Source: Piedraia hortae CBS 480.64 (Eukaryota). From it: 57,020 nucleotides of DNA. The DNA is taken from positions 1-57,020 of the forward strand of contig MU006030.1 in NCBI GenBank assembly GCA_010093745.1, read 5' to 3'. The notes under the pieces were generated by a model. That model saw only the letters and a list, made by a program, of their open reading frames with translations, was not told the DNA's origin and ran no database searches. The translations under genes and the position numbers were made by a program. Numbering within the stretch: the first letter of the stretch is position 1; every line of letters begins with the position of its first letter. Below, one piece after another: positions 15,632 through 57,020 of this stretch.

Positions 15632-17065
15632 CTACTCCCTCCCCGACCTCCTCTTCTTCACCGGACGCGGCCCCTCCCCTTCCGCAGCATCCCCACTTTG
15701 TCTTTCCCCCACCGCATCCCCAGACAGAGGAATAGTAATCGCCTCACTGGCAAACGCAGCCCTCCTCCCCCTCCCTCCACTTTCCCCCGTAACCCCCTCG
15801 TTCGCAGCAGCCGAACCTCCACCCAACCTTGCCATAAGCGCCTCATGCCCCGGCATCACCTCATCATACTCATCCGCAAAAAACGCACCCACCTCCGCCT
15901 CCGTCGTGGGCATCAACCTCTCAATAAAACTCCCCATCTTATCGACAATCCCGTTCCTCTTCTCTCTATCAATCCCACACGACTTATCCTCAATTGCTCT
16001 CCGCAGAAGGCCCAAAACATCAAGCTGATTCTCCCAAATCCTAATGTCCCTCCCCAACCTCTCATCCACCTGCTCCAAAACCTCAACCCTCCCTACACCA
16101 CCCATATAATCCCTCTTCTCAGGGCTAGACAGATAACTCTCACGAAGCAGTCCCCTCCTCCTCCCAATTGCCTCGCGCGAGAGTTTCAAACTCGAAATCA
16201 GATCGCGATACGCCTGCGCTAGGCGTTTCCCACCCCTCTCATCAAACAGTGCAGCAGTTTTGGACGTGGAAAACATATCCTTGACCCCCTCGGCGGCGTT
16301 CTTGAGAAACCTGTACGCTGTGTGGACTCGTTCTTTGGATTCTTTGATATCTTCAGTGGTTTTGAGGTATTGTTTATATGGGGTTTCGTTGCCTGTTCGT
16401 GTGATCATGGGGCTGGTTGGTGGTGAGACGGAGAAAGGTTCGGGGAGGGGGGCTTCGTCTATGAGTCCCGCTCGGAGGGTTTCGAGGTCCATTTCATCGA
16501 GGGGGATTTCGATCCTGAAATATGGGCGGGTGCGGAGTCGTAGATTTAGGGTGCGTTGACGTGAGGTTAGTAGGGAGGAGGAGCTTTCGCCTAGCACGTT
16601 CGGGGCATCTCGTTGTCGTATGGGTATGGTCAGGGTTATGGTCTTTGATTCGGGTTTTGGTGGTTCGTCCTTTGATGTGGATTTGCTTTTGGGTTTGGGT
16701 TTGGAGGGCCGTCGCTGACCCGCTACTGTGGATGCGCTCTTGATGATTTCTCCGGATGCGGTGCGTCGTTTCTGTTCTGGGGAGGAGGTGGAGGAGGATG
16801 GTTGACCGACTTTTTTGGGACCTGACTCGAAGGGAGGAGGGTCGCCTTTTTGTTGCGGCTTATCATCAGGGTCCGGAGTGTCCTCAACGCTCTGTTGGAC
16901 TCTTTCTCTGCCCTTGCTGCTGGATGCTGTGGCCTCAGCTGCACCTGCTGTGGGAGAGATATTCTCAACATTATCATCAATGCCAGATTGATCATCAGCT
17001 TTAGCTTTACCCTTGTCTGGAGTGTTGTTCTGCTTATTTTGGCCTTTCTTTCCCTTTGGTGCCAT
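15632..17065 (-). CDS. Uncharacterised protein: disordered K/P/S-rich N-terminus, helical C-terminal half
   Basis: About 1.45 kb uninterrupted ORF; plausible start MAPKGKK at 17065; no recognisable domain. Confidence 0.6.
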   Translation of the reverse strand: MAPKGKKGQNKQNNTPDKGKAKADDQSGIDDNVENISPTAGAAEATASSSKGRERVQQSVEDTPDPDDKPQQKGDPPPFESGPKKVGQPSSSTSSPEQKRRTASGEIIKSASTVAGQRRPSKPKPKSKSTSKDEPPKPESKTITLTIPIRQRDAPNVLGESSSSLLTSRQRTLNLRLRTRPYFRIEIPLDEMDLETLRAGLIDEAPLPEPFSVSPPTSPMITRTGNETPYKQYLKTTEDIKESKERVHTAYRFLKNAAEGVKDMFSTSKTAALFDERGGKRLAQAYRDLISSLKLSREAIGRRRGLLRESYLSSPEKRDYMGGVGRVEVLEQVDERLGRDIRIWENQLDVLGLLRRAIEDKSCGIDREKRNGIVDKMGSFIERLMPTTEAEVGAFFADEYDEVMPGHEALMARLGGGSAAANEGVTGESGGRGRRAAFASEAITIPLSGDAVGERQSGDAAEGEGPRPVKKRRSGRE

Positions 17066-17591
17066 TGTGTATCTGCAAACCGTGATGATGCTTGATGAAG
17101 ACATCGAAGTTGAATGATTCCTGATGTGATAAGTCGATTACTGTTGCGACGAACGCAACTTCCCTGAGCAGATCACCAGAAACTTGAGTCATCAACTGAA
17201 ATGCCTGCTACTTATCATACTCGTCTGAAAACGAACAATACCAAAGTAGCCTTCTTACTACCCAGTTCAAAAGTGCCAACTGGTCGCAAACTTTCCATCT
17301 GGTGCTCATGATCTAGCGCTCAGGTAAAGTCACAGAATGCAGATATCGATATTCAAGTTTTCACTGTCGGTTGAGCGAACACCACCGTCAAGATTCGTTC
17401 ATTAAAGCGAATCATCTCAACGTAGATTGTCTCTACCTATGGCAATGGAAAGAAGCTTCACGATGAAGTCGTGGTCAGACTTCTTAGACAGCCACCGTCC
17501 ATGGACAGAAGACGTCAAACCGTTGTGAAGCACGAAACATAAACATGGCTCAGTTATAAATCATACATCCATCTTGCTGTCTCAGTTCCGA

Positions 17592-19256: not shown

Positions 19257-20019
19257 GATGTTTGCAAATGCAGCCCTGCTGGACTGCTGGATGTGTTTAG
19301 GTGAGGCTGATGCGGGGAAGGCCAATGACGCAAACCTTCACATGCAACAAGACGTATGCCCACAACACCACCGGCCGAGGTGATATCTGCCCGAGCTATC
19401 TCAGCTATGACTGACTGCTCCACGCAGACTTACGCATTCATCAGTAAAGTGGCGCTTCCTCAAAATTTGTTGGTTTCTTGGCAGGTACATCGACTAGTCA
19501 GAAGTTTGATGCAACCGGTGTTTGATCATAAGCATCCCCAAAAGTTAAACACTCCTAGTGAATTCCAGCGATTTGATCGAAAAGCATCTCAACAATGCAT
19601 TCAAACCGTCGAAAACCGAGCACAAATGATGACAGAGCTTTCAACCACATTCAACCCCTTTCAAGAGAAAGATTGCGAGAAGTGTCTAACTTACCCATGC
19701 TGGGTCACTTTCTACGAAACTCAAATCCTGTTCCGGCCCATTGAGGCCTAGCCCGTGCACGCTGGTCATATATAGTTTTTTTCTTTACCCTCTCTTGAAG
19801 ATGTACCATATCGACTTTGCCTCCAAGCATGTCTGTGTGACCTCCGCATCACGTCCCCTAAAACTTCGATACGCCTCGTTTTCGCCACAATATTTTTCCC
19901 CGACGGTGGGCAACGTTAAGTCCAAGCACTGTCGTCTTGGCTTCCATCGCTTTCTCATCACTCGGATATTTATACCTGTCGAAGCCGATTATCGATCTGT
20001 CCTCATATCCGGTCCTACC

Positions 20020-22020
20020 TACAGTACACGCAGCCGCGCAAAAGCGCCAGCAGTCCAACTGGACGAGCCAACCCACCGCACTGACATGCCACCCGAAACC
20101 TCAGTGCATGTCGAAATACAGATTACTGTCCCGGGTTCTTTCCAAAATTGGTATCCGTGCACTTTTCAGAGCGGGGAGGAAATGTAAACAGTGGGCATCA
20201 CAGGAGTATTTAGGACAATACGGGCAATGACTGGATGAACGGCGAGCTCATGAACTTAATCAAGTCACTCAAGCTTGATAACACCGACCTCCGAGCGGAG
20301 TTTACGGAGCTTTCATTGCGATTCGCTGGGCAGTAATGTAATATTCGATGCTAGCCCGCTTCAACAAACGCCTGCGATCGCCACCCCAAATCCATGAAAC
20401 TACCGGATCTGCCAGTCCTCTCTGGAGACGGCGATGCCAACGAGTTCTATCGTGGGAAGTACGCCTTGGAATCGAAGCTCCGTGCCAATGAAGACTGGAT
20501 TGGCTCTGCCGTCTCTTGTGCGGACTACATCCTATCCCGACTCGGCAGTTTCGCCGCCGACATGGTCAATTTAAACCCGACCAGGTGCCATCTACACCTC
20601 CTGGACGGCGGAGGATCTCACTTGCGCCTTCGCAACGGCCTTCCATCGTCCACAGAGCCAAAGCACATCCGTGGCAGCAGGGTTGTCAGCGGTCTCTGAG
20701 TCGAGTGTGACGTGCGAGTCACCACGACCTTTGTGGCAAACCTTTCCGTCCGTACCAACCTACCGCCACATAACGATGAGCTTTTTCCTTCCTCGACCGA
20801 CTATGCATTGATCCACACTCTGTTGAACGTGCCTCACATGAATGGTCACTCCTCCGCCAAAACGGCACACCCTGTGCAACACTCTTCGTTGAGTTTGAGC
20901 GCCTCATATGTGACGCGGAAGCGACCCAGTGCCCCGATCGAGCCAAAAAGGATCGAACGATTAACTGCGTTGGCGATGCCGTAGAGCGAATTGCCCGCTT
21001 ATGACATCGTGAAAGCCATGCATTGCGCTACAGAGAACTTGTTTACCGCGCACCAAACTGCTTCGTATTGGCCTCTGGCGCGAAACACCAAAGGCCATCC
21101 GACTGGGCTTGGAAGAGAGCGCGCGAAGTGGGTTTCAAATAATACGCAAGCGCGCTGGTGCATGTCTCCGCGGACTGCTGTCTCATCAGACTGTACGTTG
21201 CGGTAGGTGGGTATTTCGAGCCATGATCGACGCCGCGAAGCACCTATCAGCCGGGTACATTGAACCAGCTGTAGACGTAATGATCGACTCCGCGAAGCAC
21301 CTGTCGTTCGTTGTCCGAAAACGACATCCCGCTGTGCTGAGCCGCGCACAGTTGGGATACAAACTCCGAAGACACTAAAGAGGGAGTTTAACATGGAAGC
21401 TGATCCCCTGACTTTTCACACTGGACCTCAATTCGACAAAGCCCGTTTTCAACCGGGAATTGGCTTTAATGACATGGAATACGCGAAGGGGTTCCTCTCC
21501 TCGCGTGGTTCGATCGATTTAGATTTTACACTGAAGTGTGGGGCTCAAAGTCTTAGCGAGGCAGAAGGTATCCAGAGGAGGGCATAGGGCAGCTAATACT
21601 CTACGCGGCTAGAGTTCAGTCTCTCACCGACTCTTCCGTCCTACTCCTAGTCACCGAGGGCTCAAGTTCATCGTCATGTCCGTAGCGGACTTTAAACCAC
21701 GTCATGAGTGGCTGGCGAGAAATTCTGAAGAAGTTCCTGTCTCCGCTGGGGCGTGTGGGCGGCCCGGAATGTTGTCTTTGTACCACTACAACACAGCCTA
21801 GCGCATAAAACAACACGGAGGTTTTGTCTTCACCTCCATATGTATGGAAGTTTTGCGTAGATTACAGGCAGCTGCACGAGAAACCTGCACCCATGGTTAT
21901 ATACAAACCAACATGTAAATTTCGCATAGAGTGTCAAATCTACCCAAACCGCGCACTCACAGCCTCCAGCAATAGATATATATCCGAACAAACCCAACGG
22001 ACGTGCGGAAGGTTTTGAGA
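20020..22020 (+). pseudogene. Possible degraded lineage-specific (F-box-like) gene
   Basis: Chain of short plus-strand protein-like ORF fragments; TDMPPETSVHV weakly resembles an F-box start; internal 19-codon duplication at 21223/21280. Confidence 0.2.
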
Positions 22021-22686
22021 TGGAGGGATCTGATTTGGTCTCATCCTCTATGCAATCCATGACGGACGCATTGTGTTTACAGCCCCGCTGCTTTGTTCAT
22101 AGCTCGACATGGCTTTCTCATTCAATCCACTGTTCACGGTTTTCATCAGCCATTAAGGAATATAAATTTCTGGCGTGAGATGCGTTGGGTGGTTCAGCTT
22201 TTCTGTGGAGGAGTAAGGTTGCTGTACAGAGAAGGCCATTCGGCATTCTGCTTTCCGACTCTTACGATGATGAGTTGAGGGTAGGTTACTGGTTATGGGG
22301 GAAGGTATGCTCCGCTTCACATGGGAGTGAGGCACGGGATTTGACGGGCCGGTGAGTGGTAGGCTAGATTGCGGGAGGTGAAGTGTGGATTTGCAGAGCT
22401 TGGCTGGAAACCTCATTCGATATTGTTGGGTTCAGGTGATCGACATTATATGACTAGATGTAGTCATGGACGTGACACGGCTTCATCGATTCAACGTTGA
22501 TTATGGTCACGAACATTGAAGAGTTACCACCAAGGTAGAAGTATGATCAATCCACTTAACATCCCAGCCCTCACCCCCTCTCTAAAAAAACAAAAAAAAA
22601 CCCAGTACCATAGACCACCAAAGCAGCTACGGGCTGTCAAGCCCCTGAACCACAAATGTGACTCAAGAACCCAACAGCCCAATCGA

Positions 22687-25293
22687 CTACAACCTATCAT
22701 AGTAAACATCATACCCCGGCACCTCCGTCTTCAGACCCTTCCTCTTCCTCATCGCCTCCACAATTTGTCCAGCCTTCGTTGTCTTATCCATCACACTCCC
22801 TGGTAGAACCTGCCAATGATCAAACACCGACTGCGGAAAGGCCTGACCAGATGTTGCCTGCCGCAGATCCGCATTGAACCCAAAAGACTCATTAACGGGG
22901 AGATAAGCTTTGATAATAAACATCGGCGTGCCCGGACGTTGGATTTCTTGAAACACATGGCCTCGTCTTCGGGTAAGTACGCTGTAGATTCCGCCCATTG
23001 CTTGTTCTGGGACTTGAATTTCTACGAGGAAAACAGGTTCCTGGAGGGTGGGCTCGGCGAGGAGGGTTGCTGCGTAAAGGACGCGACGGGCTGTGGGGAG
23101 AATTTGGCTACCACCGCGCTGGATGGCGTCGGAGTGGAGCGTTACGTCTGTAATATTGAAGCGAATTGAGCGCATGGGTTCTTCGGCAATGGGGCCTTCT
23201 TTGGTGGCCCACTGAAAACCGGAGATCATCGAGTCTTTGATATCGTGGAGGTATTGTACGGCTTTGGTTCGGTCGACTAGGACGTTCGCACCGGTCGTGT
23301 CAGGTCCGAAACACCAGATTTTTCGTGCGTCGGTGATTTCCCATTCGTGTTCGTCTGCCAGGATACGTGCGCGTACTTTGAAGTCGTCGCGAGGACCAAT
23401 TTTTCCGGACTCAATGTCCTTTGATACCGCTTCGCCCAGAGGTTGGGCTGTGACGTAGAGACGGTTGTGCTTGTTTTGGGACTTGGAAAGTGCCTGGATG
23501 CGCGACGAGGTGCTGACAGTCTCACGGTATTGCACGACCGGATCAGAGACACGCAGCGGCACGCCAGCGTGGTCCTCTTCAAGGTCCTTGAGACAAATCT
23601 CCAAATGCAGCTCACCAGCACCGGCCACGACGTGCTCGCCAGACTCGGAAATATATGTGAGCACACAAGGATCCGACTTGGACAAACGCTTGAGACCTTC
23701 GACCAGCTTCGGCAGGTCGATACCGTTCTTGACCTGAACAGATCGCTGCACAACAGGAGAGACCGAAAACTTCATGACCTTGAGGTTGTGTGCGTTGGGA
23801 AATTCAGTCAGCGTTCCAGACTTTAGCAAAAACTGATCGACTCCCAGCAAGCCGATAATGTTTCCGGCCGGGACACTGTCAATCTGCGCTGTTTCACGAC
23901 CCATCATGAGCACCGTACGTTGAATGGACTTGATGAACAGATCTTCCTTTTTTCCAGGCGTGTAGGCTGGGCCTTGGATGCGGATCTGAGGCCCGGCTTT
24001 GGCAGTTCCGGAGAAAACACGGCCGAGGGCGTAGAAACGGCCCTTGTCCGAGGTCGGCACCATCTTGGACACGTACAGCATCAGCTTTGCTTTGGGGTCG
24101 CAATCGCGGATGGCGATGGCTGCCTCGTCGTCCATGGGGCCCTCGTATAAAGTTTCCACGCGATACTTCTGCGCCGTGACGGGAGACGGCAGATGCAGAA
24201 TCATCATCTCCATCAAAGCATCTGCTGCGGGCAGGAACTTGTGCATGACGGCCCGTAGCACCTTCTTCGGCTCCTTCTCTCTGTCAGCTTTCGACAATTT
24301 GATTTCAAGCTTCTCAAGAAGCTTGTCAATTTCTCCCTGGTCGCCTTTCATGACAGTCTGGAAGACGCGGAAGATGGGGTCCAAGCAGAATTGATTGAAA
24401 GCCCGCTCCAACGTCTGACCCTCGTAGGTACCGTTCTTGGTCCACTTTTTGGTCTTGGGGTTAAAGTAATTGTCGCCCTGCAAATATCGTCAGCAAGAAG
24501 TCCCCGGCCGGACAGGGATGGTGTACCCAAAGCCTCTCCATCATCTTCTTCTTGTCAACGCCAAACTTCTTCGCATACTTTGCCGCGAACTGGCGAATGG
24601 TAAATGCCCAGCCCTGGAGACCAGCGCCAAAAGCGATGGTTCCCTTCTCGGGGTGGACCTGGATATCACCAAGCGCCTTGTCATAGTAAGTAGCGATAAC
24701 TACATTCACAGACTCAATCACCCGGGAAAAGCTCTGGAAGAGGTCTTCCTTTGAGAGTTGTAATTCCAGAAGTGCACGGTCGACCTTGTTGATAATGACT
24801 ACGGGCTTGATACGCTCACCAAGAGCCTGACGGAGGACCGTCTCCGTCTGCACGCAGACACCTTCAATGGTGTCAACTACGACGAGGGCGCCGTCAGTGA
24901 CGCGGAGGGCGGCGGTCACTTCAGACGAGAAGTCAACGTGGCCGGGAGAGTCAATCAGATTGATCAGAAATTCGTTCTTCTCAGTCTTGGTCGGGATATC
25001 TTTGAGGTCTTCATCATCAGGCAGCTGACCGTAGAGGGAGATTGCCGTAGATTTTATCGTCACGCCGCGCTCCTGTTCGTCTGCGCGCGTGTCCATGAAA
25101 CGCTCTTTGCTGGAGATTCCCGCTCTTCTTACGAGAGAGTCGGTGAGGGTGGATTTGCCGTGATCGACATGGGCGATGACGGACATGTTCCGGATGTTGA
25201 CCGGATTGTCCATGAGCCCGCGGATTTCTTCTATCGTGAAGCTGGGACATTAGTACGGCAGTGGCTGGGCTGGTCGATCGCTTACTTGACCAT
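22687..25293 (-). CDS. EFT: Translation elongation factor 2 (eEF2), divergent, 837 aa; exons 25293-25286, 25241-24527, 24477-22687
   Basis: MVNFTIEEIR start; [58 protein letters not shown]. Introns 25242-25285 and 24478-24526 are GT-AG and keep the frame. The diphthamide loop reads [11 protein letters not shown]. Confidence 0.95.
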
Positions 25294-45968: not shown

Positions 45969-48619
45969 GAATGTGAGAGGAATGCAAAAAAAGGAAGAGA
46001 GAAAAGCTTTTGTACCTGCTGGATGTCACCGAGTGGCGGGGCTTCAAACAGCGGCTGATGGCGGGTGGCTGGTGGCTGTTGATCTGTCGCCGTTAATTCC
46101 TCCATTGTGGCTGGATCGCCGTCGTCCCTGTTCTTCCCGTCCAACGGGCCGTTCAATCTACTGTTTTGAACCCTCAAAGATGAGCTGAGTCGAGGCTCTT
46201 CCCCGCGTGTCATCATCGTGCTCAATGCTCAAGTCATTGGTCCATGTCGTTGACGTTCGTTGACACGTGGGTGGGGCGCATGTCACCCCCAGCCACTGGG
46301 TGTTCGAACCCTAAAGGTTAAGCGAAACCCTAAATTGGCCCGGCAGTCCCCTGTCTCGTTGGCAACGAATACCACCGATACCCGGTGAACGGCTTTTATT
46401 TCCGCCGCCATGGTTGACTGAGCGATGGAAAACGTATCGCAAACCTGCCCAGCTTCAGCGCCCTCACAGCCACTCACCATCTCCCTGCTGGTGACGACCA
46501 ACAGTTACGGGAAGTCACCAGATACCCAGCCATACGTGTTTCAGCGCAAATAGACCAGCCACGCGAGGTCTCTCGGCTCCAGAATAGGGCTCCGAAACCG
46601 GCAGTTTAGCTGCGCCCCGTCGGAGAATTTGCCCGAAGCTTTCGCCGTTGCCACGGAATCGGCAGTGTCGCGTAGCCAACGCCGACTTGACCGGTTGACG
46701 CCTCTACTCGGCTATCGACTAAGAAGCGGCACTTGAGAGCCGAGAAATGCCACAACGGTTTTATTTTAAGCTTGGAATATCACGAACTTCCTGGGCGATT
46801 CCGTGTTTGTCAGCTAACTGAATAAGACATGTCTAAGGGCTTCATGTTTGGCTAACCTCCAGATACCTAGTCTATGTGGTGTCAAAACCCGTGAAACGAG
46901 ACTGGAGATTAGCACATCTCAGTTGCGCAATTGCACTGCGTGCCTTCTGGCGCGCAAAGCTTACCATTGCGATATGAGACCAATGCTAAAGTGGGTTACA
47001 AGAGCATGTTTAGCACCGTATTCGCTTCTTTCACCCTGTCGGTCTCATATAACTTTCAACGACAAGGGTGCTTCTGGGCTCTGGCTTCGGAAATTTCTGT
47101 AACATTTGGAATTCAGACGCAATAATAGCACCAAATCCAACGAAACCAGCTCGTGCGGGACAGCGTCCTACGCAAGTTCCAGTAGCAGCTGGAAGATATT
47201 GCTACGTTTCCCGACACAGCAGACAAATTGCCTAAATGTATCATGTACCACCCTAATTCGTGCGGGAGACAGACTTCCATGCCAATCATATTCCATTTGT
47301 ACACGTAGATCCTCATGCAGACAATGCCGCAATGATGCTCAGGAATCCGTTGTCATCATCGCCCAACCAATTCCCAGGACAAGAAGCCATTCAAACTTAC
47401 TGCTTTCGCCGCGGCCACATCCGAACCCTTCAAGGACAAATGACAACTCTCGGCAGTTGTGTGCATCTGTTTTCTTGTTTGTGGAATAAACATCCTCTTT
47501 TCACAGATTTGCATGCCTCACTTCCCTTCTCCGTGCTCAGTAACACCTTCAAGTTGTCCTCGCGAACCCCGTCTGCATATTCGTGCGGTAATGAGTGCGG
47601 CTCCGTATCTGCAAAAGGCGGATCTCACTTCATCTTCATGATATGGGAACGAACATTATAGGACTGAGCTATTTCAAACCAGAATGACCAGAGTCAAACA
47701 AGTTAATGACAACAACATCATGATCAAGGACCCAAACGAAGGACCGATGAATAGCGACCAGGAACTGAGTAGATGTAATGGATGCCACTTGAGTGGAACA
47801 CGAACGGCTCAAATGACCATGCTCATGTCAGGCGATGCACAACGAAAAGACTATACACCGACCAGAGGTCCTGAGCTTTACGCGGGGCAATGGACCGAGG
47901 AAAACGCATGGTGCAGATCCCAGGGAACAGGAAGCAACGCAATGGATATGAAGATCAGAGAATTGGAAGGTGAGAGCCAATACGAGAACATCTTGGCAGT
48001 TAAACTTGCGTAGCGAGATTGAATTGAAGTGACACTGCCATCATCCCATGATTTTCCTTTTCACATTTCTTTCTTCAGTCTTTGCTGTACGGTATGTTCG
48101 TTATCAGGCTGAGGTGTGGCACCGATAACTTTTAACAACACTTCTATGAGGAGAGGTAAGAGGATGCTATTTCCGCATGGCCTCATATCGCAGTTGTGTT
48201 ACCGGGCGTGAATATTCTTTTCTAAGTGATTGGTTTGTTAGAAATTGATTAGGTATAGTAACAGGGCGCATTCGCCGAGTCTGTGCGGCGGAACTTCAAG
48301 GGAAACCTCAATGAAGATGGGAAATTGATGAAGGGAGGCGTTCTGTGTATGGGAAAGCTGCATTTCCTCCTGCCTGAAAGTTGAACGGCACGAACAAGTA
48401 AGCCGGCGAACAGATACTCACGAATTTTGAAGCGCGTTTGAATGTGTAGCGGAGACTCAGAGCCCGACGCTCCAATTGGTTTGCCTCGTGTCAGAGAGAT
48501 AAACCCCTGATGGCTAATGAGGAAGCGTAGACTGAGGACAAGTGTGTGGAATTGAGTCTAATGAAAAAGTGGATGTAGATGCTTTTGACTCTATGAAGTG
48601 AGATCGCTTGAAAAACCTT

Positions 48620-50760
48620 GACCTCTATAGAAGCTCGCAGAGACGACCTGGCTGTATACTGCATGAGAGGGTTTACCGTGCCGCACCTCGAAACGAATGT
48701 CATTTTCAATGGAAACGTTATGCACTGGCCTTACTGTTCCCTGTAGGACGGCATGCGACTGCAGCGAGTTTTGACTCATCGATCTGCGTCCCGTTGAGAA
48801 TAAATTGAGGACCAGGGACTGGGATGCTCCCGCAGATTCGTCTGAATTCATCCAGATCGGACAAGTTGACTTTTTCAATGACTTTCTTAGTTCCCGGCAT
48901 GAAGACGTCCGTCAATGTGACGATCCACAATTGTACCTGGTATGGGGTTTTTAGACTTGCGGTAGGAATATTTTGAAGTCGTGGCATAGAACCGTGTTTG
49001 GTGGTTTCTGTTGACGATGAAAACAGTGGTCTTGGGCCAACTGTCTTTATTTCCATAAGTCACAGATTTTAGTGGGTAAGCTCTTAATAAACGCTTTCTA
49101 AGCACAGAACCTCTTGCCGCACGGCAAATCCGCACTGGCCCTTTGGTGATGCCGCTGCGGTACACCAAAATTTCGCTGGCAAGTGGCTGTGGTGATTATC
49201 CTGTCACAAGCGCATCCAGTGGACTATCATTGTGTCCAGGTTTTGCACCATCATGTCAGGCCCCTCTTGCACATCAATCCCCATGAATATCGTGTTGTCC
49301 TCCAATGGGTCTGAAACAAGAGATTGATGCCATCACCTTTGACATTGAATTTCATGGCAAGGTTGGTCGTGTACGATCCTCATTCCCTCGCTTTATTTAG
49401 CTACGGAGATAAGGAGCAGACCGCATGCCAGTATTCGAGGTCTGCAAGCGTGTTTATGCACCCGTTCAGCCATGTGGGCATCTTTTGGAGTATTATGAGT
49501 AGCAGCCCTACGCCGACGTCCCTTGCATGTTCAAAGACAAGGCTTTTAGTCTTCTCACTTGATCCTTCACCCCAGAGGTCTATGGGCGGAAGCGCCACAA
49601 ATTTAGTCGGCAGCTGCTGGCGCCATGATATGCCGTGCTGACGCAGGCCCTCAGTCAACTTTGAAATAAGGATGTGTTCCTCTAGCTCGCTGTGCAATGT
49701 CTCCCAATCCCTCACGCCGCGTAGTCATCTTTGAGGACCATCAAGTTTACCACTTTCTGGAAAATTTGTCTCTAGCATGTCCAGCTTGCATTACGCGGCG
49801 TGATTGTTGCCCCTGGTAAAACATTCGTGGGCATTGGGGTATACGGCCGAGGTGGTATGGGCTAGCCCTTTCATCCCATGGTTGTTTCATGGGTGTGGTT
49901 CACCAGGCGCGTGCGAACCGTGTACTCGCGCGCTTTCTGTGCAGGAGCTCATGGGTATATAGCAGGCCCTCTGGCCCTTTACAGCTTCCATAAGAGACAA
50001 TATCTTGCTCAAACTGGGTCCGTGCACACCCCCAGTGCTTTTCTTCACACGAGGATCGTAAAATTCAAAAATATGTGCCGAAGCCTCATTCCAGCAATGA
50101 TATATGGCTGAGGCCTGGGAAGCGCATTGGAAAATCATGCACCCTCACAGTCACGGTGACATCTAGTAGTAGGAGCCCTACGCCTACCCTTGGACTTGTA
50201 TGCTACCATGGCAGAGCTTGCAGATTCTTTCGAAACCCGATAGCCTCGCAGCCGTGCAGTATAAGGCCGGCAGCCCAACGAATCGGTGCTCCATCTCTCG
50301 AGATTCTTCCATATCGTTCTCGTATGCCGAGTGTGAAAATCGGTTATTATATGACAATGACGGGAAAAGTAGAGAATATGGAAATGGGAGGTGACACAAA
50401 GGACAATGTTGTTATCGCTACCTGCTACCAAGACCCTAGAGGAGGTAAGGTTACTGGCCACCCCAGCCCTATTGGGACTGGCTCCCGACTAACATCAACA
50501 AAAAAAGAGCAACAGCATGACTAGATGACCATCTATGGCTCCGGCGAAAATGGTAGAGATTCGTCAGGAGCTAGGCAAGATGATGCGCCGGCATTGTGTT
50601 CAGTATTGACAGCACGGTCATGGATGACTGCAACGAAGAACATGCCCACATCTTGGTGCGTGGAAGGTAAGAGTAGTGCGATGGTGTCGATGCAGGAGGG
50701 AATTGAGGGATTATATGCGTGCCAAAACTGCCCCACCTTCCCTCCCGCGCCTGACTTCAC
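48620..50760 (-). pseudogene. Argonaute pseudogene (PAZ-MID-PIWI remnants)
   Basis: Collinear fragments: CYIPMSSC (PAZ end); TPRNASW; LLLIILQ...LADLEYWHAVC (MID); NLAMKFNVKGDGIN (49364-49323); TIFMGIDV; LVYRSGITKG; NHQTRFY...NPIPGTIVDR; LQSHAVLQGTVRP (48762-48726). Multiple stops, frameshifts and a deletion. Confidence 0.85.
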
Positions 50761-51801
50761 TCATCATGATGTATACACTTTGTCATCGTGGAAAATCTTT
50801 CGAGTATGAACCAGGGAGGATGTGGCGCTCTATTAAATCCAATGGTTGTACGGCTAGGATGGGAAGTTCGTTAACCACGCAGTAAAGAAGTAGCATCGCG
50901 ACAGTCGGCGCTGGATAGATTACTTCAATCGAAAGCAGTTGTTTGTCCGCATGTGTGCACCCCCTTATGCAATGACCTGATCACCGTTCGGACATGCTTG
51001 GATACCTTGTTTGGGGTACTGTTTGGGTTTGTGTCGGTGTTTCGCGTCAATCATCATGCCTTGGACAAAGGCATCCTTTCGTATGGAGAGAGTTTTCCCA
51101 TTTGGGGATACGTCAGTTCAGATTATCATCATCTCATCCAATTCGTCGCTCCAGCATCATCCCTTGAGCCTGCATTGTTGCCATTCCCCTCATCTATCCC
51201 GACCACAGTGTGCAATACGTTATATTAATACTTCCATTGAATCCTGGTGCCTATAGGAGATCGGGGGATTACTGAGATGAGCAAGAAAAATCTGACGCAG
51301 ATAAGTCGTCCACGCACAATTGGAAGATGACATTGATATCCAGTAGTTTTCAACCTAGTCACGAATTGCCTATTGTCTCACGAGCACTTGCCAATTCAGC
51401 AACCTAGAAATGTTCCTGACGTTTCAATTCTCTCCTGGATGAGCTACTTTTCCAATCCAACTCGATCAGATGCGTGCGGTTCGTAAAGTCCTCTTAACTG
51501 AAGCGTTCGGCGACTTGAAAGTCGGCTTCTCACCACATCCGCTCGCTTCGTGGCTTCGAAATTGCAGACCGAGACGAGTCAACCCATTTCTGGCACTCAC
51601 ATTACATTACGGCAACAGCTTGCTGAGATAAACTGAAAAGTAGAATCGCCCAAGAACGAGCTCGAAACAAGACGTGAATTCGCGACCAAGAACAGTCGCA
51701 TATATTTTGAGACTCTTACCGGACTCTAACAGGCTGATGCCTGCATCCAAGCCGACCAAGAGGAGCGGGTCAATACGGCCCAGACCGAAGAATAACTCCA
51801 G

Positions 51802-52059
51802 ATGGAAGCCGAGAAGGCCTATAAGGACATGATCTTCCAAGCCCAATCTCTGCAGTTCCAGACCTATACTTTGCGGATCCAGTGGGAGGCTAGGCAGAAG
51901 GCCATTCTTGAGGCCTATCCCACGATGAAACAGCACCGCGACGGAACGACAAAGTTGAGGCAATCGGAAGAAGCTATGGAACTGATGAAAGATTCGTTGA
52001 TCAGCAAAGACAACAATCTCAATTTGTTCGAGAGTGAGCTGACTACCAGCAAACACTGA
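51802..52059 (+). pseudogene. Fragment of a lineage-specific coiled-coil gene (copy 1)
   Basis: Aligns without gaps by eye to the translation of about 53110-53365. Confidence 0.55.
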
Positions 52060-52856
52060 ACACGCTGCCAGACATAGAGGCTCGTACTACTGCCCAGCAA
52101 CAAGCAGAGTTTATTTGCAACCTTAGTTGTTATGTAGCCTTTTATCCCTCCCTCCCATTCACGTCTAACCTATCGGGATAATGCTCAGCAAGCAGCAAGT
52201 CGTAGAAGGTGCAGCACAGATGCGCAGAGACGAAAGAGCTCTTCAGGCAGGAAAAGGAGCACCGGGTGCACCGGGAAGGCGGGCAAGGCATTGAGAAGGG
52301 ATAGAGCAAAAAACTTATTGATTCCTTCAGCTACTTCATTAGCTGCGTGCTGCTTCCACAGGTCCTGGTGGCGGGAACAGCGGACAGTGCTGGCAGAGCC
52401 TGGGGCACATGTTGTGGGAGGAATACACTCATGGAGATGGGACTAAGGGTAAGTACCTATCTCATTACACGAAGTTGACCTCCAGCTTTTCACAACCCAG
52501 TACAATACCTCGGATAAGCAATTGAAAAGAAGCCTCCCTCCGTCCAGAAACTCCTCTTCTTCAATGTACAGCGAACTGTACAAGGCTACTGAGAGATGCG
52601 AATTGTCCTAGCTAACCTGTGCGTGACCCACGATCAAGGATAGGATCGGAAAGCATTTGAGAGTTCCTTTGCAGGCGTAATAATTGCACTATGGACGCGG
52701 GAGCGAGCAGAACTAATATGGGACCATCATTGGCCAAATACCTCGCGCTTATATAGTTGCAAAACTGGTCGGCTGCATCGCTGCACAAATATGCGGGGGC
52801 AACGCGTGGACGCGCCCAATTTCTTCTTTTCCAGCCTCAACACATCCACTCTTACA

Positions 52857-53531
52857 ATGGCTTCTTCTATAGAAACCGACATCACTCCATGTCGGAAAGG
52901 GTCACTACGCTGGAACTACAGTTTGTGAACCAAACGCTCGAAGTGGAAATCTTGAAGCAGGAGCTGGCCCAGAAAAATGAGCTTTTGGCAAAAATGGGAA
53001 AGATGTACTACGAGACTTCTCTTAAGCTTCCGGAAGCAAACAGACACATTCAGGCTGAAGAAAAGAAATGGGCCGATGCGGATGCCCGTGTCCGCAGAGA
53101 AGCGCCAAAGCGAGGCAAAAAAGACCAGTAAGGGTTTGGAGTACCAGCTTCAAGGCCGGGAATACGAGCTTTGTACACTCCAGACGAAGTGGGGCGCCGG
53201 CTAAAGCACCATAGCAGAAGCCTATGCCACAGTCAATGAGGCCCGTCAGGCGAAGGCGAAGTTGGATGAAGCGGAAAAGGCTATGGAAGCAATGAGAGAA
53301 AAGTTGGCCACCAAGGACGAAGAGGCCAACCTGGTGAAGGGCCAGCTGGCTGCAGCTCAGCAAGAGATCACCGGGCTTAACAATCGCCCGATATATCGGG
53401 CTAATAAATTGCAGATCGAACTGGACGCCGGCATACAGCATGAGCAGGAGAGTCGCAAAGCCGTGGAATCCCAGCTCCAGGAAGTGCAAAAGACGCTGGG
53501 TGATATGAAGCTTGCTGCCGAAAATAATTAG
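52857..53531 (+). pseudogene. Disrupted lineage-specific coiled-coil gene (copy 2)
   Basis: TATA-like ttatatag near 52749 and ATG at 52857; heptad-rich frames 52757-53131, 52977-53204 and 53262-53531 are broken by frameshifts and TAA 53202-53204. Confidence 0.6.
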
Positions 53532-55261
53532 CTCGTATGCTATCGAGCCAGCTAGCTGAATACCACCAAGCAATTCCAGCAGAAGGTTGATAGAGGACGG
53601 GAGCCATTCAAGGGGTTTGTGCAATTGTCTTCCTAGTTTGTACATTGTACCATCCTCTTTCCATAGACTTCCCTTCCATGACAGGTTATCGTATTAATCT
53701 TCGCTGGTGAGCATCGAAGAGCTTATGCACAGGGGATTTGAAGTCCAAGCACCAAAGGAAAAATTCAGCTCAATCTTCTGGCCGCTAACCAGTTACGGCT
53801 GCAGATTAGCAGCTACGGTTGACGCGAGTCAGCTGTCAGGGGGCCACGCACGACGTGTTCGTGCGCCAGTGTCTTGGTATACCCCACGCTCTTAGCTTTG
53901 CCCTTGCGTACGAAGCCAATTTTACCAAACGTAAATCAATCCAAGGGGCCTGGTCCTCCTCACTCATGCACTGGGCGATATGCTTGCATCACCGTCCCAC
54001 AGGGAGCAAGCCCGAGGTCCCGCCGGGAAGCCTTGAATATCCTGCGCCATCTCCCATTTCTTGGCACTAACCAGTCACGGCCTCAGATGGGCAGTCGCAG
54101 TTGACACAAGTCATGCCAGGCGCTTGCGAGTCATGTGTTCGTGCGCCAAGAATTTATTCGCACGTGTCTTGGCATACACCACGCACTTTGATTTGATATG
54201 CATGGAACAAAGTTTATGAACTCAGCCAGCGTGACTAATCCAGAATAACCCGCTCCCCCCCAACCCATGCCCTAAACCATTTGCCAGCATGATTGTCTTC
54301 AATGGCGAGACCTCTGCGCGTTCGCTACCATTGGTGCTCGTGCAATCTGCGGCAGAGGGACCGACTGCAATGAACGCAACAATGCGAGTACAGTTTGATG
54401 CACTCAACAGATGTGAAGAGCGAATGTCAGTCCAGAGTGGACGAAGGAGTCCGACTAAAACTCATCCAGACCTTTGAGCGGGACGCTACTAATGGCCGAA
54501 GGCCCTACTATGTGCTCATGAACTCCTGCACCAGATCACCTGGGAATCGTAGTGCGTGTCTGGTGAACCAGGCCCATGGAACAAGACATTAGCCCGTTAC
54601 GTCGATCGAGGAAAGGATCAAGTCTCCGATTTTGTTGGAGAACTATTAACGAAGTCTTTGCCGGATTCGCTCAGTGCAAAGTAGCACATCAAAGAATGCT
54701 TGTATTCGGAATTTCCTTTGGTCTTGATGTAACCAAAACACTCCACATTTAAACCTCTCCGTCCGCTCCTGCACTCACCATCACCTACCGATTGATCGGC
54801 GGCACCACGCAGTATTCGTGCATCAGCCCAGATATAAAACGGAAATTCTCGTCTTGATCCTGTTTGCGATCCGATACCTCGTCCGTGACAAGCACGAGAC
54901 GAATATAGGTACAAGTGGCGGTACCGCATTACGCATTGTCAGAGAAAGCTCATCTGTACCATGTCAGTCCAGGCCGACGATCAGATTGCCAGTACCATCC
55001 TCGCAGTTGGCTCCATGGAGAAGAAGACGGCGACACCGTGAACATGAAGTTCTGAAGCCTTTGAGTCATTGAGAAAATCTTGTCCTGGGCCTCGTTCACG
55101 GAAGCGCCGATGAGAGGCATGTTGCGTAGGCCAACTCGAAGCATTGAGTCTATCGTTCATGGATAGTCTGAACGGTCAACGAGCTGTGATACAATTTGTC
55201 AGGAGGGTGTTGGATCCTGTCGCATGATGTTCCAAGTGCATCGAACAGGTGGAAAGCAGGA

Positions 55262-55313
55262 TATCACGGCTAATGCCGACAGGCCCCGTTTAGTTCCAAC
55301 GCGTACCCTGACA
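55262..55313. mobile_element. 52 bp internally deleted solo-LTR-like insertion with CAGGA target-site duplication
   Basis: cagga|TATCACGGCTAATGCCGACAGG...TTCCAACGCGTACCCTGACA|cagga. Confidence 0.8.
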
Positions 55314-55355
55314 CAGGACCTGCATACCACCTGCACCGCAGCTCAAGGAGGAGCA

Positions 55356-55742
55356 TCATGACTCAACCGATGAGCAGACTTCGGGAGGCGATATCCACCA
55401 GGAAGGACAGAAAGTGTCGTAACATGATGGCCCGGTGGAATCTGAAGGCGGAACAAACGTCTTCCAGACAGTGTCGATGGCAGGGGCTTGTAGAACATCA
55501 TTATTACCGATAGCGACGAACTCTTGGCATGATTCATGCTTGGAAAACGCGCGAATGTCGTTAAAACAATGTATGGAAGCACCCGTGTCCAAGATAATAT
55601 CGTCCTTGAGGACTGTAGTCAGAGCTGCCTCAAGGGCGTAACTGGAAGCTGTGTGACTGGGACTCGGAGCCGTGACAAGGTCACGTCGCAAGGTTGCTGT
55701 TAAACCGTGGTGCATCTTCCCACTTCTGTATTCGGTCGGCAT
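55356..55742 (-). mobile_element. Ty1/Copia-like retrotransposon relic (aspartic protease region)
   Basis: IILDTGASIHCFND..F......VAIGN resembles the Copia protease D(S/T)GA-x-x-H motif; possible broken gag zinc knuckle at about 55830-55990. Confidence 0.6.
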
Positions 55743-55854
55743 GTTGTTTGACGGGCTATTCTTTTTGTCGTGTTTCCCATGACGCTTCGGCGCCTTTGAG
55801 GGATGTCTGACCCAACGAGTTTTTTCAGCACGTGGAGAGTTGAAAGTGCGTCCC

Positions 55855-55957
55855 TGTCACGGCTAATGCCGACAGGGTCCATGCTCTCTGTAGTAGAGGT
55901 AGCGCGCCTGGAGTTATCTCTTCGCGCGACAACATAATTCCAACGCGTACCCTAACA
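55855..55957. mobile_element. 103 bp solo-LTR-like insertion with GTCCC target-site duplication
   Basis: gtccc|TGTCACGGCTAATGCCGACAGG...TTCCAACGCGTACCCTAACA|gtccc; TG...CA termini. Confidence 0.85.
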
Positions 55958-57020
55958 GTCCCATACACTGTTCTGTGGTGCAACGCTTCTTCTGAGAGGC
56001 ATTCGTAAGCTTCTTCTTCACTGCGTCCACACACTTTAGACGCAAATATCCCCAGACATTCATCCTAGATCGCCATATGGTAACTTTTTTAATGCCACCT
56101 GATTCAATTTTTACATGATATGTTTTCAAACTGTTGAGTTTCTTCTTGCGGTGGATATGTAGCGTTGTATGCCTGGATGCAGCACTGCAGACACAGCGTT
56201 GAGGCAGCACAGGAGAACCGAAATTTCAAAAGCCATGGCCCCTGGCAGATTGGCCTTCCGGACCGGTCCCATTTTGGCAGGCGGGAGACTGGTTTGTGGT
56301 GCAGATTCCATGGCATGCACCATGGGGACGACAGCTCTCGCCCGCAACTGGGAATACTTCTATCATACGAGCTATAAAAGCTAACGCACTTGCCTCTGCC
56401 CTTCTGCACTTGCTAAGGTGTCTTGGTCCATCAACGCAGACCATTAACCGTCGAAGTGCTCGAACCTGCAAAAGTCTTCACTGGAGTTCATCCCTTCCAA
56501 GGTAATCCTTAAAAAGTGACGAATCCAACGACCTTTTCCATATGCTTCATCAAAGTAATCCCTCATATCATACCCTTCGTAAATCTCCCCTAGCCCGTGA
56601 ACAAGATGCTCCTAAAAACGATCACGTGTCGAGCATCAGATGAAAATCTCCCGCTATTAACAACATATCTCGTTGGGTCAAGGAGGTCACAATCGCCATC
56701 GCAGTCACTCTCGACAGACTGCATCTTAGCGCCTGAGTTATCCCACAGCCAGGTCGGCGGCTTACGAGTCATGATCGCAGGCACAGCCTCCACATCATTC
56801 CAATCAATGACCTTGTCAGTTTTGGTTTCATCCACGTCCATCATCTCAGTGACGATGATGTTCCATGGCTCCAGGTCCGAGTGGTGTTAAATACTTTGGG
56901 TGTTGGACAAAGCATCGTGATGAAGGGAAAAGTACCCATTGGATTATGCCCCAGATAGACCGCAGCACATTGCCGTCGTCAGAGAGGGGTCCACGTCGAT
57001 ATACTCGGCCGTAATCATCT

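Follow-up and report, generated by a model that had tools for sequence, protein, structure and literature searches.

A Piedraia hortae elongation factor 2 paralogue with glutamine in place of the diphthamide histidine

The diphthamide histidine of elongation factor 2 (eEF2) is the ADP-ribosylation site attacked by diphtheria-type toxins, and it is regarded as invariant in eukaryotic eEF2. The window analysed here, one entire scaffold of Piedraia hortae CBS 480.64 (57,020 nt), contains an eEF2 gene in which a first-pass annotation had read a glutamine codon at this position. Two explanations had been offered: an additional paralogue not open to modification, or the eEF2 of a lineage that has lost diphthamide. 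The question raised by this locus is which of the two applies, and what such a protein may do beside, or instead of, a canonical translocase.

Gene model and family assignment

The gene is encoded on the minus strand (25293-22687) and consists of three exons and two short introns (Table 1). The spliced product has 837 aa with no internal stops or frameshifts, and is identical to the deposited NCBI model (P0001). This is the length that had been annotated; the reading frame, described at that stage as uninterrupted, becomes so when the two introns are spliced out. Public databases carry the protein solely as an unreviewed 'Elongation factor 2'.

Table 1. Coordinates of the eEF2 gene in the window and of its distinguishing features.
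Feature	Position	Strand	Basis
Exon 1, ATG GTC AA (start codon, first 2.67 codons)	25286..25293	-	Sequence; spliced model identical to P0001
Intron 1, 44 nt, GT..AG	25242..25285	-	Exact X2 contig joins 25241 to 25286
Exon 2, G domain (Pfam GTP_EFTU, E 8.8e-49)	24527..25241	-	Splicing model and Pfam
Five-residue deletion junction (sister copy has SQNAG)	25108..25109	-	Alignments
Intron 2, 49 nt, GT..AG	24478..24526	-	Sequence, spliced model
Exon 3, domains II-V and stop (Pfam GTP_EFTU_D2, EFG_III, EFG_IV, EFG_C)	22687..24477	-	Pfam
CAA, Gln575, second tip loop (yeast P580, human P596)	23476..23478	-	SKSQNKHN against SKSPNKHN
CAG, Gln694, at the diphthamide His (yeast H699)	23119..23121	-	Alignment; X1 and X2 contigs
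AGC, Ser698 (yeast G703), same loop	23107..23109	-	Alignment; Gly in 20 outgroups and the sister copy
3' UTR to poly(A) site	22530..22686	-	X2 record 8

The gene is expressed, spliced at intron 1 (exact X2 contig) and polyadenylated (poly-T end at 22530). Run X2 was treated as cDNA because an exact contig (record 12) skips the 44 nt of intron 1, with no other letters, and because another (record 8) begins at 22530 with an unaligned run of 24 T on the plus strand. The DNA run X1 is unbroken at intron 1 (record 5). Intron 2 was bridged (24476 to 24526) by a cDNA contig that belongs to the canonical sister described below (X2 record 11), and no exact contig of the window copy across this junction was found among the matches listed. 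A further run from another organism, X3, gave short conserved pieces and one exact piece of 206 nt, at a depth of 2.7, and was set aside.

The window copy matched Pfam GTP_EFTU, GTP_EFTU_D2/EF-G_D2, EFG_III, EFG_IV and EFG_C, all above the curated cut-offs. The G1, G3 and G4 motifs of the GTPase were present, as was the switch I threonine (RGVTIKST), and all are identical to those of the sister copy, in agreement with the annotation of intact G motifs. Along its whole length the protein aligned with eEF2 chains of 842-845 aa. Against PDB chains it scored 1200-1500 bits with eEF2, among them 7old_C (1502 bits) and 1n0u_A (1375 bits), compared with about 625 bits for Snu114 and 468 bits for Efl1; the gene was therefore assigned to eEF2. 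Efl1/Ria1 and Snu114 belong to the same superfamily and have the same domain order, but they carry large insertions or an N-terminal extension that the window copy lacks. Together with the weaker matches and a tree position nested within Dothideomycete eEF2, this rules out an Efl1/Ria1 or Snu114 identity, as had been argued from the letters of the gene. The five Pfam domains, the G motifs and the full-length match are common to the window copy and canonical fungal eEF2 (P. hortae P0121; yeast Eft1/Eft2, 1N0U; 7OLD chain C).

The domain IV tip

The loop at the tip of domain IV is encoded by minus-strand positions 23140-23080. Its HxDxxHRG motif lacks the diphthamide acceptor histidine, which is replaced by Gln694 (yeast H699; yeast residue numbers were assigned through alignment of the window copy). 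Histidine was found at this position in 20/20 outgroups and in the canonical sister copy. Both elements of the annotated loop, the CAG codon and the exchange of one glycine for serine, were borne out, and the glutamine codon was recovered in exact contigs of both runs with no other letters (X1 record 1, DNA; X2 record 8). Further changes in the diphthamide loop were A695S and I706L (yeast numbering). The five-residue deletion immediately precedes the F/YMDTR stretch of switch I, one more residue is missing near the C-terminus, and the equivalent of yeast Ser579 is retained in the alignment to yeast. The window copy is thus distinguished from canonical fungal eEF2 by Gln for His, P580Q, G703S, A695S, I706L and two deletions, and also by a relocated locus and a lower cDNA contig depth.

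Glutamine at this site is rare. Histidine was present in 253 of the 254 eEF2 sequences spanning the loop, and glutamine solely in the window copy; the loop reads HADAIHRGGGQIIP in 172 of the 254. Another Gln-bearing eEF2 was absent from the 120 listed of 378 candidates in a region-restricted search, which would not favour non-Gln substitutions in distant taxa. The substitution is known from one genome, a single Piedraia genome being available. Full-text literature searches brought up no description of a fungal eEF2 paralogue that lacks the diphthamide histidine. The dph genes were present in all 168 eukaryotes surveyed save parabasalids (PMC6143161).

Related states have been described in other systems. 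Engineered yeast eft2 alleles also lack the acceptor histidine, and yeast with H699N or H699I as its one eEF2 grows and is resistant to sordarin (PMC3585130); H699Q was not among the alleles described in the texts consulted. Substitutions at H699 and at nearby residues raise -1 frameshifting (PMC6193676). Unlike these alleles, the window copy is natural, carries glutamine and additional tip changes, and occurs beside an abundant canonical copy. The aEF-2p proteins of Asgard archaea, Korarchaeota and Bathyarchaeota (Narrowe et al. 2018, PMC6143161) are likewise second EF-2 copies without the diphthamide-loop motif, encoded beside a bona fide EF-2, but they are deeply diverged, lack further translocase residues and occur in many cases in genomes without dph genes, whereas the window copy and the canonical factor share 90% identity, with the other key residues kept. 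Human eEF2 P596H (SCA26) and the yeast P580 variants alter the proline that is also lost from the second tip loop of the window copy, where the new residue is glutamine and the gene is a paralogue. Almost all substitutions of yeast P580 are tolerated, and P580D, P580F and P580H raise -1 frameshifting (PMC9830224).

The canonical sister copy and rates of evolution

A second eEF2 was found in the P. hortae proteome, P0121 (KAF2861635.1), with 843 aa, the histidine loop and SKSPNKHN in the second tip loop. The two copies are identical at 758/843 positions (90%). In the X1 DNA run, exact contigs of the window copy had depths of 12.2-13.3, and contigs of the second copy (83-84% identical to the window copy) had depths of 10.9 and 13.1. 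In X2 the window copy had depths of 194-381 and the canonical variants 5487, about 15-30 times higher, although contig depth is a poor gauge of expression. Over aa 170-230, 28 of the 31 variant codons were synonymous and the other three specified exactly the residues of P0121; judged by the synonymous changes of this stretch, the copies do not clearly differ in the codons they favour.

These data decide between the explanations first offered. Loss of diphthamide from the lineage, with the window copy as its sole eEF2, was a plausible reading while just one copy was known, in view of the reduced genome of the species (PMC7082219) and the parabasalid precedent (PMC6143161). The perfect diphthamide loop of the canonical copy speaks against it, and the presence of P0121 in the proteome and in X1 and X2 alike refutes it; its probability is negligible. 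The alternative, a second paralogue, stands.

In the tree, the two P. hortae copies are sisters within Dothideomycetes (SH-aLRT 100), with a shared stem of 0.16 and terminal branches of 0.16 for the window copy and 0.023 for the canonical copy. They have 23 derived residues in common. Judged from sequence comparison, the duplication occurred in the Piedraia lineage. With 20 outgroups, the 85 differences between the copies were resolved into 53 derived in the window copy, 10 derived in the canonical copy and 22 ambiguous. The window copy has evolved about seven times faster than its sister.

Rough pairwise values over 571 codons, obtained from mismatch counts of contigs at least 80% alike and from minimal replacement counts, were dS 1.05 (near saturation), dN 0.048 and dN/dS 0.046. 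By simple arithmetic, the 53:10 split places dN/dS at roughly 0.08 on the window-copy branch. With dS near 1 and dN/dS near 0.05, the values for the pair point to long retention under purifying selection; an unexpressed copy with dN/dS near 1, which would have spoken against the first-pass annotation, was not what was found. The changes were unevenly placed. Unique residues of the window copy fell at otherwise invariant columns in 22/51 cases (43%), against 49/234 (21%) for the other rows (Fisher p 0.002), while such columns make up 559/847 (66%) of the alignment. The EFG_IV stretch received 13 of the 53 window-copy changes, against 7.1 expected (p 0.025).

Genomic setting and possible roles

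In 29/39 fungal metagenome loci whose upstream sequence extends for 3 kb or more, a CSF1-like ORF was found directly upstream of eEF2. None is present anywhere in the window, and the window copy sits off the conserved CSF1-eEF2 arrangement. It is flanked by housekeeping genes (COQ5, importin, Rad4, PTPA, PAK kinase). A P450 gene (17592-19337) lies 3.3 kb from it, and a second P450 and an FAD monooxygenase are located at 41.5-45 kb of the window. The neighbours of the window gene stand beside eEF2 in 0/76 metagenome loci, with weak P450 matches (about 25% identity) in four.

Self-resistance classically takes the form of a duplicated target that has acquired resistance-type changes, and the P450s and the monooxygenase in the window could suggest a biosynthetic cluster for an eEF2-directed metabolite, e.g. 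sordarin. That origin is very improbable and has been largely refuted: apart from the housekeeping flanks, Pfam scans of 25 long ORFs and of 79/170 shorter ORFs in unannotated stretches revealed no core synthase (no terpene cyclase, PKS or NRPS), no prenyltransferase and no glycosyltransferase, and an orphan ORF of 501 aa had no fold or feature match in an atlas search. The part of domain III that includes the sordarin-specificity stretch is, moreover, identical in both copies.

The window gene is probably a relocated eEF2 duplicate of the Piedraia lineage, maintained as a minor translocase isoform that is expressed and GTPase-competent. The duplicate would have left the ancestral CSF1-eEF2 locus, and its domain IV tip would have been remodelled by H699Q, G703S, A695S and I706L, with P580Q in the neighbouring loop. 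Without an imidazole at 699, Dph1-Dph2 should be unable to begin diphthamide synthesis, and we infer a protein that translocates and carries no diphthamide. ADP-ribosylating toxins are predicted to be unable to modify it, on account of the yeast H699 substitutions (PMC3585130). It should also evade diphthamide-dependent trapping by sordarin, the expected cost being in reading-frame maintenance.

Part of this pattern has another possible source. The fast rate of the window copy and its changes at conserved sites are also expected where constraint on a duplicate of low expression has been relaxed. The gene might then be a redundant copy, an ordinary translocase of low abundance without a selected role, in which H699Q, P580Q and G703S are mildly harmful and masked by the abundant canonical factor, in a host-restricted species with a small genome. 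The sevenfold longer branch, the 53 against 10 derived changes and the far lower cDNA contig depth are consistent with such drift. So is the striking of invariant columns twice as often as in the other rows, yet below their overall share, and among 101 Dothideomycetes P. hortae ranks last both in genome size and in gene number (PMC7082219). Drift is a serious possibility, but we consider it on the unlikely side, since the divergence values indicate long purifying selection, on the window branch as well, the gene is free of stops and frameshifts and its transcript is spliced and polyadenylated, and the changes are concentrated in EFG_IV and not evenly spread. A role outside translocation, such as occupying idle ribosomes in dormant hair nodules or tuning frameshifting by competition, appears improbable. 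Both decoding-centre loops and the stretch adjacent to switch I are altered, and eEF2 is known on hibernating ribosomes (PMC6226290, PMC11063288). However, all GTPase motifs and the essential tip residues are retained in a protein 90% identical to the canonical factor, including Ser579, every tried substitution of which was lethal in yeast (PMC9830224), and nothing points specifically to dormancy.

As a relocated translocase isoform, the window gene would be a natural, expressed, selectively maintained and unmodifiable eEF2 beside a canonical copy in one cell. The pair would be a natural system for asking how diphthamide and the tip loops serve fidelity, and could show how far unmodified eEF2 is tolerated and how toxins or antifungals exert pressure on the translocase. 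A narrower proposal, which we make tentatively and regard as rather unlikely, is that selection has kept the window copy as a spare diphthamide-free translocase that sustains translation when toxins or other tip-acting agents block canonical eEF2. Sordarin acts by trapping modified eEF2 on the ribosome, so a resistant copy in the minority may give no protection beside an abundant sensitive one. The proline-to-glutamine change at the P580 position was also found in 12/12 dermatophyte eEF2 entries listed, where the histidine is retained; the dermatophyte form further carries A695P and P707G. Dermatophytes are the other fungi of hair and skin keratin, and this independent fixation of P580Q may point to a common pressure acting on the eEF2 tip in that niche.

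Structure, reality and expression of the glutamine-bearing eEF2

After splicing, the eEF2 gene of the window encodes 837 aa with zero stops, the same at every letter as P0001, the protein deposited for Piedraia hortae CBS 480.64. The first-pass annotation had described this eEF2 as uninterrupted, which holds for the spliced product but not for the gene, as it carries two introns. All five EF-2 domains were present in the protein (Pfam). Solved eEF2 chains aligned with it end to end at 1200-1500 bits, against ~625 for Snu114 and 468 for Efl1, in agreement with its earlier assignment to eEF2 rather than to either of these.

Features of the glutamine-bearing eEF2 gene
Feature	Position or length	Strand	Basis
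eEF2 gene	ATG at 25293, stop 22689-22687	-	sequence and spliced model
Three exons	25293-25286, 25241-24527, 24477-22687	-	spliced model
Two introns	44 and 49 nt, GT..AG	-	spliced model

The codon read at the domain IV tip in place of histidine, CAG (Gln) at 23121-23119 on the minus strand, was borne out by exact contigs that span it with no differing letter, both in the DNA run X1 (record 1) and in X2 (record 8), a run from a different study that carries an identical organism label. Among 254 eEF2 sequences covering the loop, 253 have His and one, the window copy, has Gln. A search limited to residues 670-719, which favours proteins with the same Gln-containing words, returned 378 candidates, and the 120 matches listed included no second Gln-bearing eEF2. 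No published description of a fungal eEF2 lacking the histidine was found by literature searches.

Intron 1 is absent from an exact X2 contig (record 12), where 25241 is joined to 25286, and is read straight through in the DNA run (X1 record 5). In addition, X2 record 8, which starts at 22530, has 24 T as a loose plus-strand end, the poly(A) tail of the transcript. It follows that the window copy yields a spliced, polyadenylated transcript. The intron 2 junction is evidenced only by the cDNA contig of a second, canonical copy aligned to the window.

A canonical sister gene and the history of the duplication

When run contigs were compared with the window at 80% likeness, another eEF2-like gene was recognised in X1 records 2 (143 differences over 831 nt aligned, depth 10.9) and 6 (115 over 715 nt, depth 13.1). 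These depths equal the genome depth, the exact contigs of the window copy being at 12.2-13.3. Most differences occur at every third base, and in residues 170-230 the variant codons comprised 28 synonymous and 3 replacement (n = 31). The same variants recur in an X2 contig of depth 5487, compared with 194-381 for the window-copy contigs. Taking contig depth as a rough measure, this suggests that the window copy is about 15-30 times scarcer than the canonical one.

The second member of the 90% cluster of P0001 is P0121, an 843-aa protein of P. hortae CBS 480.64 from a 307,400-nt contig, identical to the window protein at 758/843 positions. It carries the canonical LHADAIHRGGGQIIPT and SKSPNKHN, and its residues at the 3 replacement codons match the run variants exactly. 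The search for a canonical-loop eEF2 in this fungus was thus successful, and of the two readings offered beforehand, a second paralogue stands while a lineage that lost diphthamide is rejected: P. hortae possesses two eEF2 genes, with the canonical form as the abundant one.

A third eEF2-like contig of X1 (19.6 kb, depth 260), aligned against window 23455-25102, is more distant and has one variant in common with X3, a run of another organism. It seems to be foreign DNA, in a run with a second organism. X1 is probably the run from which this assembly came.

Maximum-likelihood analysis of 34 eEF2 sequences grouped the two Piedraia copies as sisters (SH-aLRT 100), nested within Dothideomycetes of the Capnodiales type. 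Their common stem measured 0.16, and the end branches 0.16 (window copy) and 0.023 (canonical copy). Both copies have 23 residues that are absent from all 20 outgroups. Together with the sister placement, these shared derived residues place the duplication inside the Piedraia lineage. Among the 23 are residues 209 and 212 (window about 24614-24625), where both copies read GAGLQGW and 20/20 outgroups GSGLHGW, which indicates that the eEF2 of the whole lineage is unusually changed.

Between the copies there are 85 differences, of which 53 are derived in the window protein, 10 arose in P0121 and the remaining 22 are ambiguous. Divergence was estimated from mismatch counts of three aligned segments (571 codons) and minimal replacement counts. 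This gave pS 0.57 and pN 0.047, corresponding to dS ~1.05 (near saturation), dN ~0.048 and dN/dS ~0.046 for the pair. Splitting this 53:10 gives roughly 0.08 for the window-copy branch and 0.015 for the other, rough figures in view of the near-saturated dS and the restriction of the comparison to stretches with 80% or more likeness. The window duplicate is old and remains under purifying selection, though of a relaxed kind. Of its 51 unique residues, 22 (43%) lie at columns that do not vary among the other 21 rows, against 49/234 (21%) for those rows pooled (Fisher p 0.002), with 559/847 columns invariant overall. The Pfam EFG_IV stretch was enriched in window-copy changes (13/53 versus 7.1 expected, p 0.025); within what we take to be the structural bounds of domain IV, the figures were 24/53 versus 13.4 (p 0.0014).

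Residue changes and possible function

According to its alignment with yeast eEF2, P0121 shares the yeast residue numbering from about 264 to 804. In this numbering, the window copy has derived H699Q, G703S, A695S, I706L and M689T in or near the diphthamide loop, along with P580Q in the second tip loop and E494Q. It has also lost a five-residue stretch (SQNAG in the sister copy) immediately N-terminal to F/YMDTR of switch I, and one residue close to the C-terminus. The essential neighbours S579, K582, H583, H694, D696 and R700 are retained, and G domain residues 116-188 are identical in both Piedraia copies. At yeast T57, the first Thr of FTDTR and Thr in yeast and all 20 outgroups, both copies have Met (window 25094-25096, Met52; P0121 residue 57). 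If this Thr is, as we assume, the regulatory phosphorylation site of eEF2, both copies would escape that regulation.

Human hair is the habitat of P. hortae, the black-piedra fungus. Dermatophyte eEF2 (Trichophyton, Microsporum, Arthroderma; cluster of P0074, proteins P0074 and P0272-P0285) showed SKSQNKHN and LHPDAIHRGGGQIIGT in all 12 listed entries, that is, P580Q, A695P and P707G with the His kept. In the same cluster, both motifs are canonical in Thermoascus and Blastomyces, and a partial Coccidioides entry has canonical SKSPNKHN, its diphthamide loop being unmatched. P580Q thus has independent origins in two keratin- and hair-associated lineages.

Diphthamide synthesis is reported to begin on the imidazole of the loop histidine (PMC6193676), so the Gln at yeast 699 would be unable to carry the modification. 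Yeast H699N and H699I alleles are described as supporting growth as sole eEF2 with sordarin resistance equal to that of dph mutants, and eEF2 without diphthamide as not ADP-ribosylated in vitro by diphtheria toxin (PMC3585130). Higher -1 frameshifting is reported for P580H and for changes at H699 or residues close to it (PMC6193676). P580 substitutions are nearly all viable, with P580D and P580F raising -1 frameshifting (PMC9830224). Based on this yeast genetics and the essential residues kept, the best-supported reading is that the window copy acts as a minor working translocase isoform free of diphthamide. It would not be targeted by ADP-ribosylating toxins and would probably be less faithful in translation.

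That the copy is retained for this property is a proposal. The main rival account is that the gene is a duplicate of low expression under simple relaxed constraint. Since sordarin traps modified eEF2 on ribosomes, a minor resistant copy may be of no help when the abundant copy is sensitive; against catalytic inactivation of eEF2 by ADP-ribosylation it could be helpful. A further proposal, a self-resistance gene in a biosynthetic cluster, is unsupported: the surroundings are housekeeping and no core biosynthetic enzyme was found in the window ORFs searched (Pfam; atlas search of an orphan ORF).

Narrowe et al. (PMC6143161) report that, parabasalids aside, all of the 168 eukaryotes they surveyed have dph genes, and also describe archaeal paralogues of EF-2 that lack the diphthamide motif. 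The Piedraia gene is likewise an EF-2 paralogue without this motif; unlike those described there, it is recent, 90% identical to its sister, and its host's main factor is canonical. The pair is relevant to studies of diphthamide and translocation fidelity.

Genomic surroundings

The P. hortae genome (16.95 Mb, 7,572 genes) is reported as the smallest, with the fewest genes, of 101 Dothideomycetes (PMC7082219). Among the 39 fungal loci from metagenomes with 3 kb or more of upstream flank, 29 have a giant ORF immediately upstream of eEF2 and in the same orientation; in L022 (L022:1-9339) it has Csf1_N and Csf1_C domains. CSF1 is a bridge-like lipid transfer protein. This neighbourhood recurs in records of two Dothideomycetes: in Oleoguttula sp., a Csf1 protein and eEF2 share a single 29-kb contig, and the two are joined in some public gene models, such as the fused one of 4222 aa in Cryomyces minteri. 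No CSF1-like sequence was found anywhere in the window, and its neighbour genes lie beside eEF2 in 0/76 metagenome loci. This comparison, made for the locus of the window copy, argues that the window copy is the relocated duplicate.

The neighbours (Pfam) are a PAK kinase, Anp1, a flavoprotein reductase, PTPA, Hsp20, a P450, COQ5, an importin, a GH5 enzyme and Rad4. A 501-aa open frame at 15635-17137 (minus strand) is without family, feature or fold match (atlas model pLDDT 0.46), and no recognisable gene lies in the roughly 3 kb on the downstream side of this eEF2 (19400-22600). In the last 11 kb (46000-57020) no long ORF matches a family, apart from a Piwi piece of 102 aa at 48890-49195 on the minus strand (mid-domain match, E 3.3e-07), possibly a broken Argonaute gene.
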